18,113 bases of DNA, taken from the NCBI GenBank assembly GCA_964453885.1, contig CAYVPU010000041.1, positions 1 through 18,113 on the forward strand, written 5' to 3'. This document shows, piece after piece, positions 8,998 through 16,568 of this stretch; within the stretch, counting starts at the first letter, position 1; each line of letters begins with the position of its first letter. The position numbers were made by a program, and so were the translations under genes. A model generated the notes under the pieces. That model did no database searches and had not been told where the DNA came from. It worked only from the letters and a program-made list of their open reading frames with translations. This DNA comes from an uncultured Anaerolineae bacterium. GTDB taxonomy: Bacteria > Chloroflexota > Anaerolineae > CAYNKW01.

Positions 8998-10524
8998 TTA
9001 CTGTACAAAAGTCCACCAATCGCGGACATCAATAGAGCGGATCCGTGCCCACATGTCGGCCTTGATCGCCCAACGAGCCACGCTGCCTTTTTCTTCCTTC
9101 TGGGAAACCTTCTCTTCTTCTTCCTCTGTGCTAGTGACTGTTGTTCTCCTACCCTGCTTCTCAGTGACCGCTTTTTTCTTACCTGTCTTTTCCGTGGTCG
9201 TCACCTTTCGTTTCAAGCTGACAACGACCTGGATGCCCGCGTCGTCCGTGCGCTCGACGCTCTCTACCTTGGCATCGCCTATAAGATCAATCTGTTTCTT
9301 GGCCGAGTTCATAACGATTCTCAACAGGAGCGCGGTGTTGGTGAAAACCGGTTGCGGCATGAACTTGTTTAACTGGCTGACCTGACGCTTGACTAGCAGA
9401 GCGGTGAGAGCCACAGTGATAAAGACAAAGGAAAGACTGTAGGTCAGAGAGGTGATGAGCTTTTCTTCAAAGCTAGGCCCAGCCGGCGGCAGAATCCAGT
9501 ACTTTATGAGAACGATCGTCACCAGGGCCATTGCCAGACCGGCGAGAAAGGCGCCTACCTCAATGATTTCCAATGATGGACCGGGCTTCTTTTTGAACGG
9601 CCGAGCCCACTTGGTGATGCGGAAGTCCTTGGCCTTGTCTTGCAGCACAAAAAAGACAACGACAGAAAGCACGACGGCCAGGATGACGCCTATCAGGTGA
9701 GGCATCCAGTGAGTGAATGCTCCTTGTACAAGTGCCAGAAGAGGCACGATGAGAGGGAAGGGTCGTCTCAGTATGGGCGTAACGCTATTTGCTGCCGGTC
9801 GCCAACTGTAGATGTCTGTCTTGCAGCGAGGACAAAGGAGAATCTTGCCTGGCAATGGCCGCAATGCAGCTACGTTGGCTATCCTTCTTCCGTCAGGGCC
9901 GAGCAACTCTGACTCGGCGTGTTGGCTGCGGCAAATGGGGCAGGTGGGCATGAACCTTTTCAGTTTACGCTCAGCCGGTACTCGACGGAGATCGAGAAGA
10001 ACCAGTGGAGCGAGAAACTCAGCGAGCTCAGAGTCATCTCTCTTGTAGGCACTTAAGAGCTTCTTTTCGCTTTTCGTTGGAAGCTCAACAGTGGCTTTTA
10101 CACTGCTTCTCTCTATCCCCAATATCCGTACATCATTCGGGGAAATTTCCAGAAACGCAGCTATTGCAAATTGAACCCACCTCTGGTTCCTAGCATCGAA
10201 ATTCTCTAGTTCCATCTGGATCGTCAATTCAACTTTGGTCATGGGCTTGGGTGTGCTGTCTGCTTCTCCATACCGCCGGAGCACCCAAGGCTTCTGCTTG
10301 TACTCCCTCAGTGTCTTTGCACCCCAGTTTTCCTTATCTGCCTGTTCATGGCAATTTGCACACAGGCAGATGAGATTCTCTACTTTGTGTTCTTTCGATT
10401 CACGCCAAGGTACAATGTGTGCCCGTTCAAGTGGACAACGGGTGCCGCAGACTGCGCAGCGATGTCCAGATTCCAATAATATCTTCCTGGTGATTTCAGT
10501 GGGGATTGAGGGTCTGTTAGGCAT
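8998..10524 (-). CDS. HNH endonuclease domain protein fused to a zinc ribbon, four TM helices and a Lys/Glu-rich C-terminal tail. Candidate effector of a two-gene island.
   Basis: The HNH motif is at aa 20-66 (HRCAVCGTRC...ERAHIVPW...ENLICLCANCHE). A CxxC...CxxC zinc ribbon is at aa 195-234. Four hydrophobic helices span aa 255-378. A K/T/E-rich tail spans aa 435-480. The local GC is ~45-50% against ~62% in the flanks. Confidence 0.6.
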   Translation of the reverse strand: MPNRPSIPTEITRKILLESGHRCAVCGTRCPLERAHIVPWRESKEHKVENLICLCANCHEQADKENWGAKTLREYKQKPWVLRRYGEADSTPKPMTKVELTIQMELENFDARNQRWVQFAIAAFLEISPNDVRILGIERSSVKATVELPTKSEKKLLSAYKRDDSELAEFLAPLVLLDLRRVPAERKLKRFMPTCPICRSQHAESELLGPDGRRIANVAALRPLPGKILLCPRCKTDIYSWRPAANSVTPILRRPFPLIVPLLALVQGAFTHWMPHLIGVILAVVLSVVVFFVLQDKAKDFRITKWARPFKKKPGPSLEIIEVGAFLAGLAMALVTIVLIKYWILPPAGPSFEEKLITSLTYSLSFVFITVALTALLVKRQVSQLNKFMPQPVFTNTALLLRIVMNSAKKQIDLIGDAKVESVERTDDAGIQVVVSLKRKVTTTEKTGKKKAVTEKQGRRTTVTSTEEEEEKVSQKEEKGSVARWAIKADMWARIRSIDVRDWWTFVQ

Positions 10525-10581
10525 TACTGTCTATACCTTTCATCTCAGCTCAACTAGAGCAAATCGGGCAGGTAGGCATAG

Positions 10582-11832
10582 TTATCCCTTCCCTTTGGGA
10601 TCATTCGGCGATGAATTGTCTGTAGTCGCCTCGTCAGTGCTGGGCTCGCTTGGCCCTGTGGCTTTTTTGAGTATGGCGACCGCCTCACCAACGAATTCCA
10701 CTTCGTCCAGATCAGTGAACTCGAACGATTCCATGTCAGAGTTTTCTGGCTTGAGAATCCTGGTGCTGCCCTCACACAGATATCTTTTTAGTAGAGCTTT
10801 CTCGTCTTCTCCCCGAATGACAGCGGCCACAACACTGCCGGACTCCGGCTCGAACGGCAGATTCCGCGGGCGTCGAAGCCAGACATAGTCTCCCGAGTGA
10901 ATGTCCAGCCCTTTCATGCTCTCTCCCTCGACCTCGGCAATAAAGTAGAGATCGATTGTAGGGTCTAATGTCAATTGTGTCTTCTGTCCCTGTCCAAGTT
11001 CTACTGGTCGGATGAAGCAAAGCTCATCATCTATGAAGACCGACTCAATACTTGGCAGGGTTCTGGTCTTGTCATCTATGGATTTTCCCTGACCGGCAGA
11101 GATAGGATCAGACACAACTGGTGCAAAGCCGAAAATCATAGACAAGAGGGGCATAGACTGTTCACTTTGTCGCTGCTCAGTCTCTGTGGTGCCGTCAGCA
11201 TTTCCTTGTGGACCTGGGCGCTGGTGGGTTCCTGCGGCGGCTTCAGTACCGCCGAAGGAAGGCTGGCACAAATTCTCGCAGATCCGCTCGAATGCCTCTA
11301 ACACCTCCTCCTGACGGAGGGATACCAGATCTCGTGAGAAGTGTGCACGTGCATTATCAAGGTCGAGAAGACTTTGTTGATAGATCTTCACAGCTTGTCT
11401 TAGCTGATCTCGTTGAACTGGCGTATCTCCCTGAACCTTTTGAGCCATCTGAACCAACACATCCCCTCTAGCCTTGTTCACGACGCCAGCGTTGTAGTGT
11501 CCCACCATGCCTGAGTTCAAGAAACATTGTGCAGAGTCATCAAGTTCATCCTTTGCATCCTTGAGTTTCCCATTGGCCCAATGAACAGCCCCCTTATAAG
11601 CTCTAAATACCCCTTTGGGATAAGGTGAGATAGCCGCTGAATTGCGCGAAACTCGTTCTTCTGAGAGCAAACGGAGAGACAGTCCGCAAATGTTATCGGC
11701 TTCAGTCCATTCCCCTCGATTCCATGCTTCTTCAAACCGTCGCCGCAATGCTTGCATCGCTGAACCGAGATACTCAGATTCAATGATCAGTTGGTCCAGG
11801 AGTTTTCCCGGGGATTCAAAATAGGGCGCCAT
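10582..11832 (-). CDS. LexA/S24-family self-cleaving peptidase domain protein with a non-HTH alpha-helical N-terminal domain
   Basis: The C-terminal domain has a GESM (Ser305) nucleophile motif, LLKRY (Lys349) and VVAAVIRGE, typical of the S24 / LexA / UmuD fold. An Ala246-Gly247 candidate autocleavage site lies in the linker. The N-terminal ~190 aa are helical with no HTH visible. A strong SD (AAGGAGGAGGGG) precedes ATG 11832. Confidence 0.6.
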   Translation of the reverse strand: MAPYFESPGKLLDQLIIESEYLGSAMQALRRRFEEAWNRGEWTEADNICGLSLRLLSEERVSRNSAAISPYPKGVFRAYKGAVHWANGKLKDAKDELDDSAQCFLNSGMVGHYNAGVVNKARGDVLVQMAQKVQGDTPVQRDQLRQAVKIYQQSLLDLDNARAHFSRDLVSLRQEEVLEAFERICENLCQPSFGGTEAAAGTHQRPGPQGNADGTTETEQRQSEQSMPLLSMIFGFAPVVSDPISAGQGKSIDDKTRTLPSIESVFIDDELCFIRPVELGQGQKTQLTLDPTIDLYFIAEVEGESMKGLDIHSGDYVWLRRPRNLPFEPESGSVVAAVIRGEDEKALLKRYLCEGSTRILKPENSDMESFEFTDLDEVEFVGEAVAILKKATGPSEPSTDEATTDNSSPNDPKGKG

Positions 11833-11908
11833 ACCCCTCCTCCTTGTCCTTCACATAGATCGTACATACAGCGCAATGTCTCCTGCGTTGCTGACTGACC
11901 TGGTCAGA

Positions 11909-12086
11909 TGGCTAAGCCTATTTTCGACACCACAACATACAGTGGTATCCAGGCCCATTTGTTGCTACATGTTGCGTAGAACATTTGGGCGCAAAACTGG
12001 CTATGTCCGTATCTTGTGGGAAATGTGCTCTGAACCACAGTATGTTGTATAGGAACTTATGTTCTATGTCGAAAACAGGCTAAGCT
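11909..12086. repeat. nested imperfect inverted repeats forming a ~180-bp potential stem-loop or MITE-like element between the flotillin gene and the island
   Basis: The outer 20-bp inverted repeat is GGCTAAGCCTATTTTCGACA (11909-11928) vs TGTCGAAAACAGGCTAAGCT (12067-12086), matching 17/20. The inner 13-bp inverted repeat is CAACATACAGTGG (11933-11945) vs CCACAGTATGTTG (12035-12047), matching 12/13. The right arm overlaps the flotillin stop codon. Confidence 0.4.
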
Positions 12087-13969
12087 GGTTCTTCTGAAGC
12101 TTCCCTCTGATCCGCCTCTTCCTCAAAGTCCGGTTCCCTGATGCCAGGCTGCCCTCTCACGAGAGCCCTGGTTGGGGGAGTGATGATGCTGACCAGTTTT
12201 CTCATTTGATCCAGATCAATCCTCTGCTTAGCCATTTCCTCTAGTATTTCTTGAACTCTCTTTGGGTCCAAGGTTCTCAGCATTGCCTCCGCAAGGCGCT
12301 GGAAGAGAATCGCCTCGGCCTCGGCCTCGGCATGTGCCTGGATTCGCGTGGCGGCCGCTTGCGCCTGGGAGTCCTCTATAGTTGCCATTCCCCTTATTTT
12401 TGCGATCTCTCGCGCGAATGTGGCTGCAAGTTTGTCTCTTTCCATTTTTGCTTTGGCAGTTTCCAACCGGCTCCTTGCCTTTCCTCGCGCGTCAATTACT
12501 GCCGTCTCAGCATCTGTCTCTGCCACTTCCCGACGAGCTTGCGCTTGACCGGTGGCCGCGATACGATGGATTTCACCCTCATGTTCCGCAGCCAGCCGCC
12601 GCCCCTCGGCTTCTGTCACAATCTTCCACCGCTCTGCGTCAGCCTTGACCTTGTCGATCTGTGCTTCTGTCTTTCCCCCTGTTAACATTGCCTGGCTCTT
12701 GCCCGCAGCCAGGATGGCGGCCGCTTCGCCCTCTGCCCTGGCTTCCACCAGGGCTTGCCAGCCTCGCCAGGGCGCACCCCACCGGCGTAGGAACTCCTCC
12801 TGCGCTTCTTCCGGCATCTCAATGGAAATGATAGTTAAACCAGTGATACTGACTCCCCAAAGAGTACCTGTCTCGGCGGCTCCGGTTCTGGCTTGTTCAG
12901 CGATGTCCAGAAGGGTGCTTTGCTCCATGCTCACCCGCTCATCTTCATTTACCACAAAGATCTCGTCAACCAAAAAACCCCGGATAGCTGCGCCAACTCT
13001 ACCGATCGCCAGGCCGATTGTCTGCGATTTCCAGTCCCTGTCAGATCTGATTCTGTAAACAGCCCGGTAGAGCGTGCGCCGGTACACTGGATAGGGGCCG
13101 GATATGATGCCTTTAAAGTCCTTGGTCTCAAAATCTCCCCTGTCGCCCCTATCTCTGGCTTCCTTCCACCCCTCAATGCGAAACATGATGAATCCCTTGA
13201 CCGCCAGCGGCACGTTGTCCTTGGTCAGGGCCTTCACCTCGAAATTCTGTCCCTGGGTTCGCAGATCAATGCTGGCTTTGACCCTTTCGAATTTTCGCAG
13301 GGTCACCAGCCCTGGCCCTTCAACGCGTGTGACATCGCCGCTGCGCTCCAACACTATGGCGTTGTACGGCTTGATCACGGCGACAACCGGCCGGCCAAAT
13401 TTGTCCAACGGGCCTTTGGGCTTGGTCATTGCGATCTCGCCTTCCTCGACAATAAAATAGGGCTCACCGATGCCCAGGGCCAGGTAAAGCAAAAGCTTCA
13501 TGGCCAGCTTGCGGTCCAGCTCGTACGTCTCGCGGAGGGCCAGAAACCACTCGGCGCTGACAAAGAGAACGAGTCCCAGCGGCAGGCCAACGGCCAACGC
13601 GCCACCCACCAGCCCGGCCAGGACTGACAGGCCAGCCCTCACTGCCAGGTGCTTAAACAGAGGCCCAATCAATGACCAGTTGCTGATCCTGGCGACTATC
13701 GCTTCGCTGTTCAGCTTGGAGTAGGCCAGCCCTCCCACAAGAAGACCGACTGCCAGGAGAAGGTAAAGAAACAGAAAAAGCCGACGCAGTTTCCCCGAGA
13801 AGAACTGAACATAGAGGATGCCAAATAGAAGAAAGGCAATATAACCGACAGTGGGACCTCCCAGCAGGAGGCCCGGGATACTGACGCCCATCGCCATGAG
13901 GAAGAACAAGAGCCGTTGCCTGGTCCCCGGATCGTTTCTGCCGGTTTCCTTGTCACCATCAGCGCTCAA
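12080..13969 (-). CDS. flotillin-like SPFH/band-7 protein with a multi-TM N-terminus and a C-terminal EA-rich coiled coil
   Basis: The SPFH core is PYNAIVLERSGDVTRVEGPGLVTLRKFERVKASIDLRTQ...VKGFIMFRI. There is a long charged coiled coil with AEAEAEA. About 4-5 N-terminal TM helices are present. The start is TTG, with GGAGGTGA 7 nt upstream. Confidence 0.8.
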   Translation of the reverse strand: MSADGDKETGRNDPGTRQRLLFFLMAMGVSIPGLLLGGPTVGYIAFLLFGILYVQFFSGKLRRLFLFLYLLLAVGLLVGGLAYSKLNSEAIVARISNWSLIGPLFKHLAVRAGLSVLAGLVGGALAVGLPLGLVLFVSAEWFLALRETYELDRKLAMKLLLYLALGIGEPYFIVEEGEIAMTKPKGPLDKFGRPVVAVIKPYNAIVLERSGDVTRVEGPGLVTLRKFERVKASIDLRTQGQNFEVKALTKDNVPLAVKGFIMFRIEGWKEARDRGDRGDFETKDFKGIISGPYPVYRRTLYRAVYRIRSDRDWKSQTIGLAIGRVGAAIRGFLVDEIFVVNEDERVSMEQSTLLDIAEQARTGAAETGTLWGVSITGLTIISIEMPEEAQEEFLRRWGAPWRGWQALVEARAEGEAAAILAAGKSQAMLTGGKTEAQIDKVKADAERWKIVTEAEGRRLAAEHEGEIHRIAATGQAQARREVAETDAETAVIDARGKARSRLETAKAKMERDKLAATFAREIAKIRGMATIEDSQAQAAATRIQAHAEAEAEAILFQRLAEAMLRTLDPKRVQEILEEMAKQRIDLDQMRKLVSIITPPTRALVRGQPGIREPDFEEEADQREASEEPA

Positions 13970-14012: not shown

Positions 14013-14050
14013 AATATTACCACACTTTTACCCAAAAGAAAAGGCGGGGT
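14013..14050 (-). promoter_or_regulatory. putative promoter for the flotillin gene (extended -10 TGGTAATAT on the minus strand)
   Basis: The minus-strand sequence TGTGGTAATATTAGG lies ~45 nt upstream of the TTG start. The -35 is weak. Confidence 0.3.
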
Positions 14051-14051
14051 T

Positions 14052-14124
14052 CGTGAAACGTGATCCGTGATCCGTGAAACGTGATTCGACACCGCGTCGT
14101 ACGCATCACGCATCACGCTTCACG
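14052..14124. repeat. Structured intergenic repeat element, copy 2 (GTGAAACGTGAT...CGCATCACGCATCACGCTTCACG). It overlaps the gyrA stop.
   Basis: CGTGAAACGTGATCCGTGATCCG (14052-14074) is a 20/23 inverted complement of CGCATCACGCATCACGCTTCACG (14102-14124). There is a tandem 7-mer GTGATCC x2. A third GTGAAACGTGAT copy sits in the loop. The core is shared with the element at 3105-3198. Confidence 0.5.
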
Positions 14125-16568
14125 GGGTTTGCCTTCAGCCGGGCGACCGAAGCGACTGCGTCTCCGGCCTGGAGTTCCATGATCCGTTTGCCTCGAGAGG
14201 CGCGTCCCTGTTGGGCAAAGCTCTCCACGCGGGTACGGAGGGCCATCCCCTCGGCAGTGATGATCGTGACCTCATCCTCCGGACAGACTACTCGCGCCGC
14301 GACAATGGGGCCAGTTTGTGCCAGGTGCTTCTGGTGAAGTGTGACAACGCCGCTCCCGTGGCGACCTTTGGTGGGATACTCGGACAGGGGCGTACGCTTG
14401 CCGTAGCCGTGGGCTGTCATCACCAGCAATTGCCCCTCGGGCTCGACCACATCCATGCTGGTCACGGCGTCACTGCTGGTCAGGCGGATGGCCCACACCC
14501 CAGCGGCAGCCCGGCCCTGCTGCCGGGCTGCCCTTTCGGAGAAACGCAGCGCCTTGCCTAGCCCGGTGATCAACATGACTTCCCGGTCGCCGTCTGTCAG
14601 CCGCACCCATCCCAATTCGTCTCCCTGTTCCAGCTTGATGGCGGCCAGTCCGCTGCGGCGCACGCTGGCGAACTCGTTCAGCGCCACGCGCTTGATGCGC
14701 CCCTTCCGGGTGGCCATGGTCAGAAAACCAGCCTCCTCAAAGCTAGACACCGGCAGCACGGCGGTGATCCGCTCTCCACTGGACAGGGCCAGCAGGTTGG
14801 CCAGAGGGATGCCTCTCGCCTGCCGCTGTGCGTCCGGGATCTGGTAAACCTTTTCCTGGAACACCCTGCCCTTGTTGCTGAAAAAGAGCACGCTGGCCAG
14901 CGAGTTGGCAGCAAAGAGATATTGCACGGCGTCTTCGTCGCGGATGCTCATGCCCGCCACGCCTCTTCCGCCACCCGCCTGGGAGCGATACGCCTTGATC
15001 GGCGTCCGTTTGATGTAGCCCCGGTGGGTGATCGAGATCAATACCGTCTCATCCGGCACCAGGTCTTCTGCTTCCAATGTCTCCCCATCGCCAACGGCGA
15101 TGCGGGTACGCCGGTCGTCGGCGTAGGTCTCCCGCAGTTCCGCCAGCTCTTCCTTGATGAGATAGAAAATCTTGCGCGGGTTAGCCAGCAGATCTTCCAA
15201 ATAGGCAATGTTCTGGATGACATCCGCGTACTCGTCTTCGATCTTTTGCCGTTCCAGGGCGGACAGGCGGCGCAGTTGCATGTCGAGGATGGCCTGAGCC
15301 TGGATTTTGCTCAGCTTGAAGCGTTTCATCAAGCGTGTGCGGGCCGTCTCGGCATCAGGTGACCGGCGGATAGTCTCAATGACCGCGTCCAGGTTGGACA
15401 GGGCGGTCAGCAGCCCTTCTAGAACGTGTGCCCGCTGATGGGCCCGCGCCAGGTCGTATTCCGCGCGGCGGGTGATGACCTGGCGGCGGTGCTCGACGTA
15501 AATCTGCAACGCCCGCTTGAGCGAGAGCGTCCGGGGCGTGCCATCCACCAGGGCCAGGATGTTCACGCCAAAGGTGTTTTGCAACGTCGTGTGTTTGAAC
15601 AACTGATTGAGCACCTTGCGCGGCTGAGCGCCCCGCTTGAGCTCAATGACAATGCTCATGCCTCGCCGATCCGACTCATCCCGCAGGTCCGATACGTCAG
15701 TCAGGCGACCGTCACGCACCAGGTGGGCGATCTTTTCGAGCAGCCCGGCCTTGTTCACCTGGTAGGGCAATTCGGTGACGACGATGCGATGCCGGTTGCC
15801 GCGCATTTCTTCGATGTGGGTCACGGCTCGCATCACCACTCGCCCACGCCCGGTGGCGTAGGCCTGGAGGATGCCCTCGTTACCCAGGATCAGCCCGCCG
15901 GTGGGAAAGTCTGGCCCCTGGAGAAAGTGCATCAGATCTTTGACCGTGATGTCGTCCAACTCGTCGTAGCGGTCAATGACGTAACCGATAGCGTCGCACA
16001 GCTCCCCCAGGTTGTGGGGCGGGATGTTGGTGGCCATTCCCACAGCGATGCCAGAAGCGCCGTTGAGCAACAGATTTGGCAGTTTCGCTGGCAGCACGGA
16101 CGGCTCTTGCAGTGTCTCGTCAAAGTTGGGGACGAAATCCACCGTCTCCTTGCGGATGTCCTGCATCATCTCCTCGGCAATAGCTGCCAGGCGCACCTCG
16201 GTGTAGCGCATGGCTGCCGGTGCATCCCCGTCCACGCTGCCAAAGTTACCCTGGCCGTCCACCAGCAGGTAGCGCAACGAAAAGTCCTGGGCCATGCGGG
16301 CCATGGCGTCGTAGACCGCCGAGTCGCCGTGGGGGTGATACTTGCCCAGCACTTCACCCACAATACGAGCGCTCTTTTTGTACGCCGTGCCGGACTGCAA
16401 TCCAATGTCGTGCATGGCGTAGAGAATACGCCGGTGCACCGGCTTTAGTCCATCGCGCGCGTCGGGCAACGCCCGCGCCACGATGACGCTCATGGCATAG
16501 TCCAGATACGCCCCGCGCATCTCCTGTTCGATATCTACCGGTTTGACCGTTCCGATTTCCATCTGCAT
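14106..16568 (-). CDS. gyrA: DNA gyrase subunit A
   Basis: Motifs [38 protein letters not shown] and [18 protein letters not shown] are present, and C-terminal beta-pinwheel repeats are visible. The preferred start is ATG 16568 (MQMEIG...) with AGGAGA 10 nt upstream. The ORF track's TTG at 16604 lies inside a hairpin. Confidence 0.93.

Follow-up and report, generated by a model that had tools for sequence, protein, structure and literature searches.

An 18,113-nucleotide stretch of DNA from an uncultured Anaerolineae bacterium (contig CAYVPU010000041.1; hereafter the window, by which we mean the whole stretch) carries on its minus strand an open reading frame (10582..11832) that begins with ATG and encodes a 416-amino-acid (aa) protein composed of a TPR-like helical head, a disordered linker and a LexA-like S24 peptidase domain. 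We refer to this protein as TPR-S24. Its gene is flanked, on the same strand, by a gene for a 629-aa SPFH/Band-7 protein upstream (12080..13969) and a gene for a 508-aa membrane protein downstream (8998..10524). The Shine–Dalgarno sequence of the TPR-S24 gene is strong (AAGGAGGAGG, ending 6 nt 5′ of the ATG), and eight metagenomic contigs encode a protein identical to the 416-aa product; a 43%-identical homologue, P0002, lies on another metagenomic contig. Hydropathy analysis of TPR-S24 found no transmembrane segment and no signal peptide. Judged from sequence and predicted fold, TPR-S24 is a cytoplasmic protein of the LexA type (MEROPS S24), predicted to cleave itself, with a TPR head in place of a DNA-binding head.

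The S24 domain, the head and the cleavage strand

The C-terminal part of TPR-S24 matches Pfam Peptidase_S24 (PF00717) over aa 295-385 with an E value of 3.8e-11 (43.2 bits against a gathering score of 23.3), bearing out an earlier note on this DNA that had read a LexA-like peptidase domain from the letters alone. AlphaFold2 (AF2) run on only 2 sequences left this domain without a resolved fold, whereas an alignment of 30 sequences that included LexA-, UmuD- and helix-turn-helix (HTH)-S24 proteins resolved the catalytic core at a predicted local distance difference test score (pLDDT) of 77-97 over aa 261-394 (10651..11052, minus strand). The top Foldseek matches of the modelled core were the C-terminal domains of LexA and lambda CI, with a probability of 1.00 and a target-normalised TM-score (TMt) of up to 0.76.

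The proposed catalytic dyad, Ser305 in GESM (10918-10920, minus strand) and Lys349 in LLKRY (10786-10788, minus strand), was read back from the DNA and falls where it should in a LexA-type enzyme. HMMER alignments to LexA chains from the PDB pair GESM with LexA GMSM (Ser119) and LLKRY with VKRL (Lys156), and the 30-sequence alignment again sets Ser305 and Lys349 on LexA Ser119 and Lys156, as the earlier note had supposed. For comparison of the cleavage region we assembled a family set of 13 members that contain it, drawn from protein searches and metagenome loci; these share 25-50% identity with the window protein across the S24 region. G-x-S-M and K-R are kept in all 13. On sequence, dyad and fold together, TPR-S24 is a member of the S24 superfamily for which self-cleavage is predicted.

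Membership in the named subfamilies was considered and rejected. The NCBIfam lexA model (TIGR00498) scores 45.3 bits against a cut-off of 110.95, matching the C-terminal part alone, and the N-terminus is a TPR domain instead of a winged HTH, so that TPR-S24 is not a LexA repressor proper. UmuD fares no better: its NCBIfam model (NF007621) scores 32.5 bits against a cut-off of 110, and the Ala-Gly site is preceded by a long N-terminal part of ~245 residues instead of a short tail. The PHROGs repressor and UmuD families likewise match only the C-terminal part.

In the AlphaFold models the head (aa 8-190; 11263..11811, minus strand) is all-helical, with seven long helices at pLDDT 80-97 from the two-sequence and 30-sequence alignments alike, and it matches solved TPR structures as a TPR repeat superhelix. 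Residues 1-290 have no match in Pfam, NCBIfam, PHROGs or PADLOC. While the window protein gives no Pfam TPR match at E <0.01, its homologues P0009 and P0010 carry precomputed TPR_12 matches (weak in P0010), and an invariant G-x-Y-N-A-x-V-V motif is common to the heads of relatives. Because of the modelled seven-helix fold and the TPR_12 matches in two homologues, we assign the head as a predicted TPR protein- or peptide-binding domain; an HTH head was rejected, since the fold is that of a TPR. The description of this region as helical and without an HTH, made before any structure was predicted, is thereby upheld and given a fold. A loose Rx6H pattern in the same region (RAYKGAVH) did not survive comparison with relatives, in which Arg77 is replaced by His, Asn, Asn, Asp or Cys and only His84 is mostly kept. 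We discarded the HEPN-like motif on these grounds: the segment is ordinary TPR consensus and the pattern is a chance one.

Sequence divergence is concentrated in the head. Between the window and related locus L001, the TPR head is 29.5% identical, compared with 70% for the S24 domain, 57% for the SPFH protein, 60% for the core of the downstream membrane protein, and 80% and 82% for two housekeeping neighbours (PfkB and a 219-aa protein). The head is by far the fastest-diverging element of the neighbourhood in this comparison, which fits a specificity module and hints at a function in recognition. Behind it runs the predicted G/T/Q-rich linker (aa 191-236; 11125..11262, minus strand), which is disordered in the model (pLDDT <50); in P0002 the linker is 32 residues longer and of unrelated sequence.

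The linker leads into a short strand, APVVSDPISAGQGK (aa 237-250; 11083..11124, minus strand, read back from the DNA), that holds the predicted scissile bond, Ala246-Gly247 (11092-11097, minus strand), as placed by conservation in family alignments. An Ala-Gly with a Pro eight or nine residues before it (P-x(7-8)-A-G) is present in 12 of the 13 family members, in variants such as FPIMGLASAG, FPVVGLASAG, LPVIGPIPAG and IPIVGEITAG. Pro238, Ala246 and Gly247 are near-invariant and match the LexA-type P..V/I.AG motif, and in the 30-sequence alignment Ala246-Gly247 stands in register with the Ala-Gly of the LexA-, UmuD- and HTH-S24 proteins. The linker directly N-terminal of the Ala-Gly is not conserved among the members. 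Because P-x(7-8)-A-G is kept while the surrounding linker is not, we argue that the predicted scissile site is under selection and is not a chance dipeptide. Its position agrees with the earlier note, which had put the Ala-Gly about 58 residues ahead of the Ser; Ala246 stands 59 residues before Ser305.

The geometry around this site sets the family apart. The distance from Ala-Gly to Ser is 54-61 residues in this family as against 33-40 in 19 ordinary S24 proteins from the same search, and that from Ser to Lys is 40-49 residues (60 in one member) as against 36-38. The first difference reflects an insertion of ~20 aa, specific to the family, that comes after the cleavage strand and before the Ser strand, and a beta-hairpin that AlphaFold models at aa 264-276 is part of the extra segment.

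The SPFH-linked locus and its relatives

TPR-S24 appears to belong as a subunit to a conserved membrane module that comes in two layouts: an SPFH protein, TPR-S24 and a zinc-ribbon membrane protein, or two SPFH paralogues and TPR-S24. In the window the SPFH protein was recognised by Pfam Band_7 and hydropathy; about four transmembrane segments are predicted, the SPFH domain spans aa 198-392, and the rest includes a long helical stretch rich in Ala and Glu and, at the C-terminus, an acidic tail. With about four transmembrane segments, the SPFH domain would be cytoplasmic, as far as hydropathy indicates.

A metagenome scan with a 5-member S24 alignment as the query yielded further loci with which to gauge this linkage. 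Ten loci extend 5′ of the TPR-S24 gene, and in every one of them its immediate upstream neighbour, in the same orientation, is an SPFH gene. The ten fall into three diverged lineages, and the spacing of the two genes varies from a slight overlap to a gap of 247 nt. Seven of these loci have a single SPFH gene (the window, L001, L087, L088, L089, L091 and L095) and three have two SPFH paralogues (L092, L093 and L135). As a control, ~75 other S24 loci of the same scan were inspected, and none has a related SPFH gene.

The downstream membrane protein completes the first layout, its orthologue following the TPR-S24 gene in 5 of 5 loci of the one-SPFH lineage. Orthologue identity delimits a conserved core (8998..9951, minus strand) that comprises a zinc-ribbon (CPxC...CPRC), 3-4 transmembrane segments and a C-terminal domain of unknown fold for which Pfam gave no match. 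This core is 50-60% identical to the products of the genes directly 3′ of the S24 gene in L001, L088 and L095, and the 5′ end of such a gene is present in L087. In the window alone the gene has an in-frame N-terminal extension of ~600 bp (9952..10524, minus strand) in whose product Pfam recognises an HNH nuclease domain (HNH_2 and HNH, aa 23-66); the orthologues lack this extension, and the L001 and L088 copies begin at MPTCP. An imperfect direct repeat of 21 nt brackets the extension, with one copy (ATGCCTACCTGCCCGATTTGC) at 10579-10559 and the other (ATGCCCACCTGCCCCATTTGC) at 9951-9931; it is a duplication of the MPTCPxC start that the downstream gene originally had. The extension is probably a mobile cassette inserted into the 5′ end of this gene, and the HNH part is the only part of the gene for which PADLOC returned matches, weak ones to nucleases.

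The SPFH proteins of the one-SPFH lineage have C-termini that are Pro-rich and then strongly acidic, reading EPDFEEEADQREASEEPA in the window (12080-12130) and EGEEEMPEETE, HDQEEEEEEG and DLEEMPDEEE in L001, L087 and L088. These tails resemble the acidic C-terminal peptides that some TPR domains bind. As a general ligand of the TPR head the acidic tail was rejected, being missing from the two-SPFH loci.

Several of the related loci have features of their own. In L092 (1-12400) the TPR-S24 gene had been under-called as 198 aa; the open reading frame is 374 aa long and includes a TPR-like head with a Y-N-x-G-V-V motif. Immediately ahead of the gene are two SPFH paralogues and the hsdR, hsdM and hsdS genes of a type I restriction-modification system, and a fragment of a rolling-circle Rep gene lies close by. 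In L095 (4593-8603) the three-gene cluster is followed by a gene for a 1337-aa protein that weakly matches UvrD-helicase, AAA and STAND-NTPase models and whose C-terminal region is long and helical. In L088 (1087-2181) a single in-frame TAA splits the TPR head (164 aa) from the S24 part (187 aa), at a point where close relative P0009 has Lys (…EIM*KFNR… versus …VIKKFNR…). The stop may mark a pseudogene, stem from an error in sequencing or reflect a protein that is naturally in two parts; L089, a second contig with the TPR protein of L088, ends ahead of the stop position.

Within the window, the three-gene cluster (SPFH, TPR-S24 and zinc-ribbon; 9000-13000) has a G+C content of 50-55%, compared with ~60% in the flanking housekeeping genes, a contrast that points to a separate origin or to another constraint. 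The interval from the gyrA stop to the SPFH start (14045-14125) holds a short repeated element of CGTGAAACGTGAT-type units, as two tandem 21-nt copies and an inverted copy. Some 71-78 nt at this place are missing from contigs L002 and L004, which are otherwise 99.96-100% identical to the window, and the gyrA product, 832 aa in the window, is called as 820 aa in both. An Rfam scan of the window gave no match, and a scan for promoters and terminators gave no informative site.

The family is exceedingly rare, and all of its observed members lie on Chloroflexota-type metagenomic contigs. When aa 1-240 were searched exhaustively with HMMER against 1.84 billion cluster representatives, only six proteins came back; an index-based protein search found 2 full-length relatives, to which a profile search added little. 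No family member turned up in the GTDB species genomes scanned. Phage records gave no match, plasmid records gave matches to the LexA/UmuD-type core only and no family member, and the one match in a scan of viral contigs did not extend beyond the S24 core. The gyrA of the window is closest to those of Anaerolineae and other Chloroflexota metagenome-assembled genomes (65% at best), and one distant family member (L092) comes from a metagenome-assembled genome labelled Chloroflexi.

A candidate switch at the membrane and its rivals

S24 proteins are a textbook example of the self-cleaving switch, and the S24 domain dimerises in LexA, CI and UmuD. Given its LexA-like strand with a conserved Ala-Gly, TPR-S24 would naturally be expected to cleave itself and thereby detach the N-terminal module; because the head is a predicted TPR domain and the gene is linked to SPFH genes, such a switch would act on a protein–protein interaction at the membrane. 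The SPFH linkage shifts the likely biology from transcription control upon DNA damage to a membrane-associated protein switch. We therefore favour, at about an even chance, a self-cleaving switch that would operate together with the SPFH membrane scaffold and whose cleavage would part the S24 body from a TPR head that binds a partner.

In molecular terms, the TPR head would bind a partner, most likely the co-encoded SPFH or zinc-ribbon membrane protein, while the S24 body, probably dimeric, would hold the complex together, so that the intact protein bridges its SPFH or zinc-ribbon partner. Upon a signal, and by homology with LexA, CI and UmuD, the Ala246-Gly247 strand would enter the Ser305/Lys349 active site and be cut. 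The cut would free the TPR head (~27 kDa) from the S24 body (~18 kDa). As in LexA, cleavage may then lower avidity and expose the fragments to degradation, and the membrane partner would be released or re-set.

Several observations weigh against this switch. One relative, L102, lacks the exact Ala-Gly, and the distance of 59 rather than ~35 residues to the Ser is atypical. In the AlphaFold model, residues 198-260, including the Ala-Gly strand, have pLDDT <50, and the strand is not placed in the active site. One pairwise HMMER alignment sets LexA Ala84-Gly85 opposite Ile267-Asp268, leaving the register of the cleavage strand not fully certain; we take this pairing to be a shift in register caused by the insertion, since the alignments across the family concur in placing the site at Ala246-Gly247. 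On the side of the genes, every locus belongs to one narrow set of uncultured bacteria that are related to each other, and the linkage could in part be inherited synteny, since synteny in the window clade extends to PfkB and a hotdog-fold thioesterase gene as well. The acidic SPFH tail, finally, occurs in 4 of 5 one-SPFH loci and in neither L095 nor the two-SPFH loci.

A possible but doubtful extension of the switch gives TPR-S24 a larger part, as the sensor and protease subunit of a new SPFH-based membrane system in which it would take the place of the NfeD-type proteases of classical stomatin operons. The trigger would then be the state of the SPFH assembly, or an invader or stress ligand at the fast-evolving TPR head, and not RecA*; cleavage would unleash or re-set the SPFH cage or the zinc-ribbon effector, for example in abortive infection or membrane-damage signalling. 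A defence context is weakly hinted at by the restriction-modification neighbour in L092, the UvrD/STAND-like NTPase in L095 and the fast divergence of the TPR head. We rejected a catalogued anti-phage defence system, as no PADLOC-DB v2 model matches the S24 or the SPFH protein.

Among the alternatives, the one that survives best, and that the earlier note had put forward, couples the protein to the SOS response, with RecA* on single-stranded DNA as co-protease, so that DNA damage or phage replication would release or activate the TPR module and its membrane partners. The fold and dyad are LexA-like, the restriction-modification system beside L092 would fit a role in sensing damage or phage, and RecA* is used by almost every characterised S24 protein (PMC7101444). 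The only exact GAAC-N4-GTTC (Cheo/SOS-box-like) palindrome of the 18-kb window lies at 12053-12064, within the 247 nt that separate the SPFH gene from the TPR-S24 gene. That palindrome is, however, in none of the related loci, whose spacers are much shorter, and we accordingly rejected an SOS box as a family feature. With ~20 additional residues beside the cleavage strand and 4-10 more from Ser to Lys, the surface on which RecA* docks could be altered; the loci give no indication of DNA damage as the signal, the constant partner is a membrane scaffold and not a DNA-related gene, and RecA-independent autocleavage of an S24 protein is known (IrvR; PMC7101444). On balance we think the SOS-coupled form rather unlikely.

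The SPFH linkage, obligate in these loci, also lends itself to an NfeD-like scheme, in which the S24 domain would cut the co-encoded SPFH or zinc-ribbon protein in trans, with the TPR head recruiting the substrate, as a functional replacement of the ClpP-fold NfeD/STOPP protease. Pfam scans of both partner products gave no NfeD match, SPFH proteins generally team with proteases (PMC2636767), and the Ser/Lys-dyad protease 1510-N cleaves its operon-partner stomatin (PMC3795559). Yet the fold is unrelated to that of NfeD, and an alignment of the SPFH proteins has no conserved LexA-like cleavage motif (P..x..A-G type). S24 enzymes are essentially self-processing, and TPR-S24 has kept its own LexA-type Ala-Gly strand, which would be superfluous in a pure trans-protease. 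We argue that this conserved self-substrate strand favours self-cleavage over trans-cleavage, the two models being compatible, and find cleavage in trans improbable.

It is very improbable that the S24 domain is a non-catalytic scaffold that only dimerises or adapts, its Ala-Gly a relic: some LexA homologues are non-cleavable, the Ala-Gly strand is undocked in the AlphaFold model and the spacing is atypical, but Ser, Lys, G-x-S-M, K-R and Ala-Gly are conserved across members that share only 25-35% identity, which would be unexpected in a dead enzyme.

Meaning and comparison with known systems

To our knowledge, characterised S24 members essentially all control either DNA binding, as LexA, CI and their relatives do, or polymerase V, as UmuD does. 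Our search of the searchable literature found no description of a TPR-S24 fusion or an SPFH-S24 pairing, and nothing relevant on SPFH proteins together with anti-phage activity. If the self-cleaving switch at the membrane is real, it would mean that the S24 switch has been re-used for protein–protein signalling there, and that a second, structurally unrelated class of Ser/Lys protease is paired with SPFH proteins, which would offer a new handle on why prokaryotic SPFH scaffolds so often accompany proteases. The immediate reach is limited, because this is a small family that is restricted to a few uncultured Chloroflexota.

With RRNPP-type TPR sensors (PlcR and Rap) the likeness is no more than that of TPR folds in general (8% sequence identity), and the output of those sensors is an HTH or a phosphatase, not a protease. 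IrvR of Streptococcus mutans is a closer precedent in one respect: it is LexA-like, and its autocleavage answers a non-SOS stress without RecA (PMC7101444), which shows that alternative triggers exist. Unlike TPR-S24, IrvR is an HTH transcription factor, with no TPR domain and no SPFH linkage.

NfeD/STOPP proteases, such as 1510-N of Pyrococcus horikoshii PH1510, share with TPR-S24 an operon logic only, that of a Ser/Lys-dyad protease in a conserved operon with an SPFH scaffold; in the known case the protease cuts the stomatin encoded beside it (PMC3795559), and SPFH-NfeD operons have been reviewed (PMC2636767). NfeD has a ClpP/S49-type fold, is membrane-bound, carries an OB-fold C-terminal domain and cleaves stomatin in trans, whereas TPR-S24 has no Pfam NfeD or ClpP match and lacks a transmembrane segment.

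UmuD resembles the proposed TPR-S24 switch in being an S24 protein without a DNA-binding domain that acts through protein–protein interaction and whose self-cleavage changes its partner interactions. It has only a 24-residue tail before the cut, however, and acts with UmuC/Pol V, whereas TPR-S24 would lose a folded domain and has no umuC nearby. The closest likeness is to LexA and lambda CI (MEROPS S24, PF00717), with which TPR-S24 shares the fold, a Ser/Lys dyad in G-x-S-M and K-R, the layout of head, linker and protease, and an Ala-Gly on a P-x-x-G/x-x-x-x-A-G strand N-terminal to the core. It differs from them in its greater Ala-Gly to Ser distance (54-61 versus 33-40 residues), its long disordered linker and its linkage to an SPFH gene; and where LexA and CI carry an HTH, its head is a predicted TPR domain of ~180 aa, so that TPR-S24 would not be a DNA-binding repressor.

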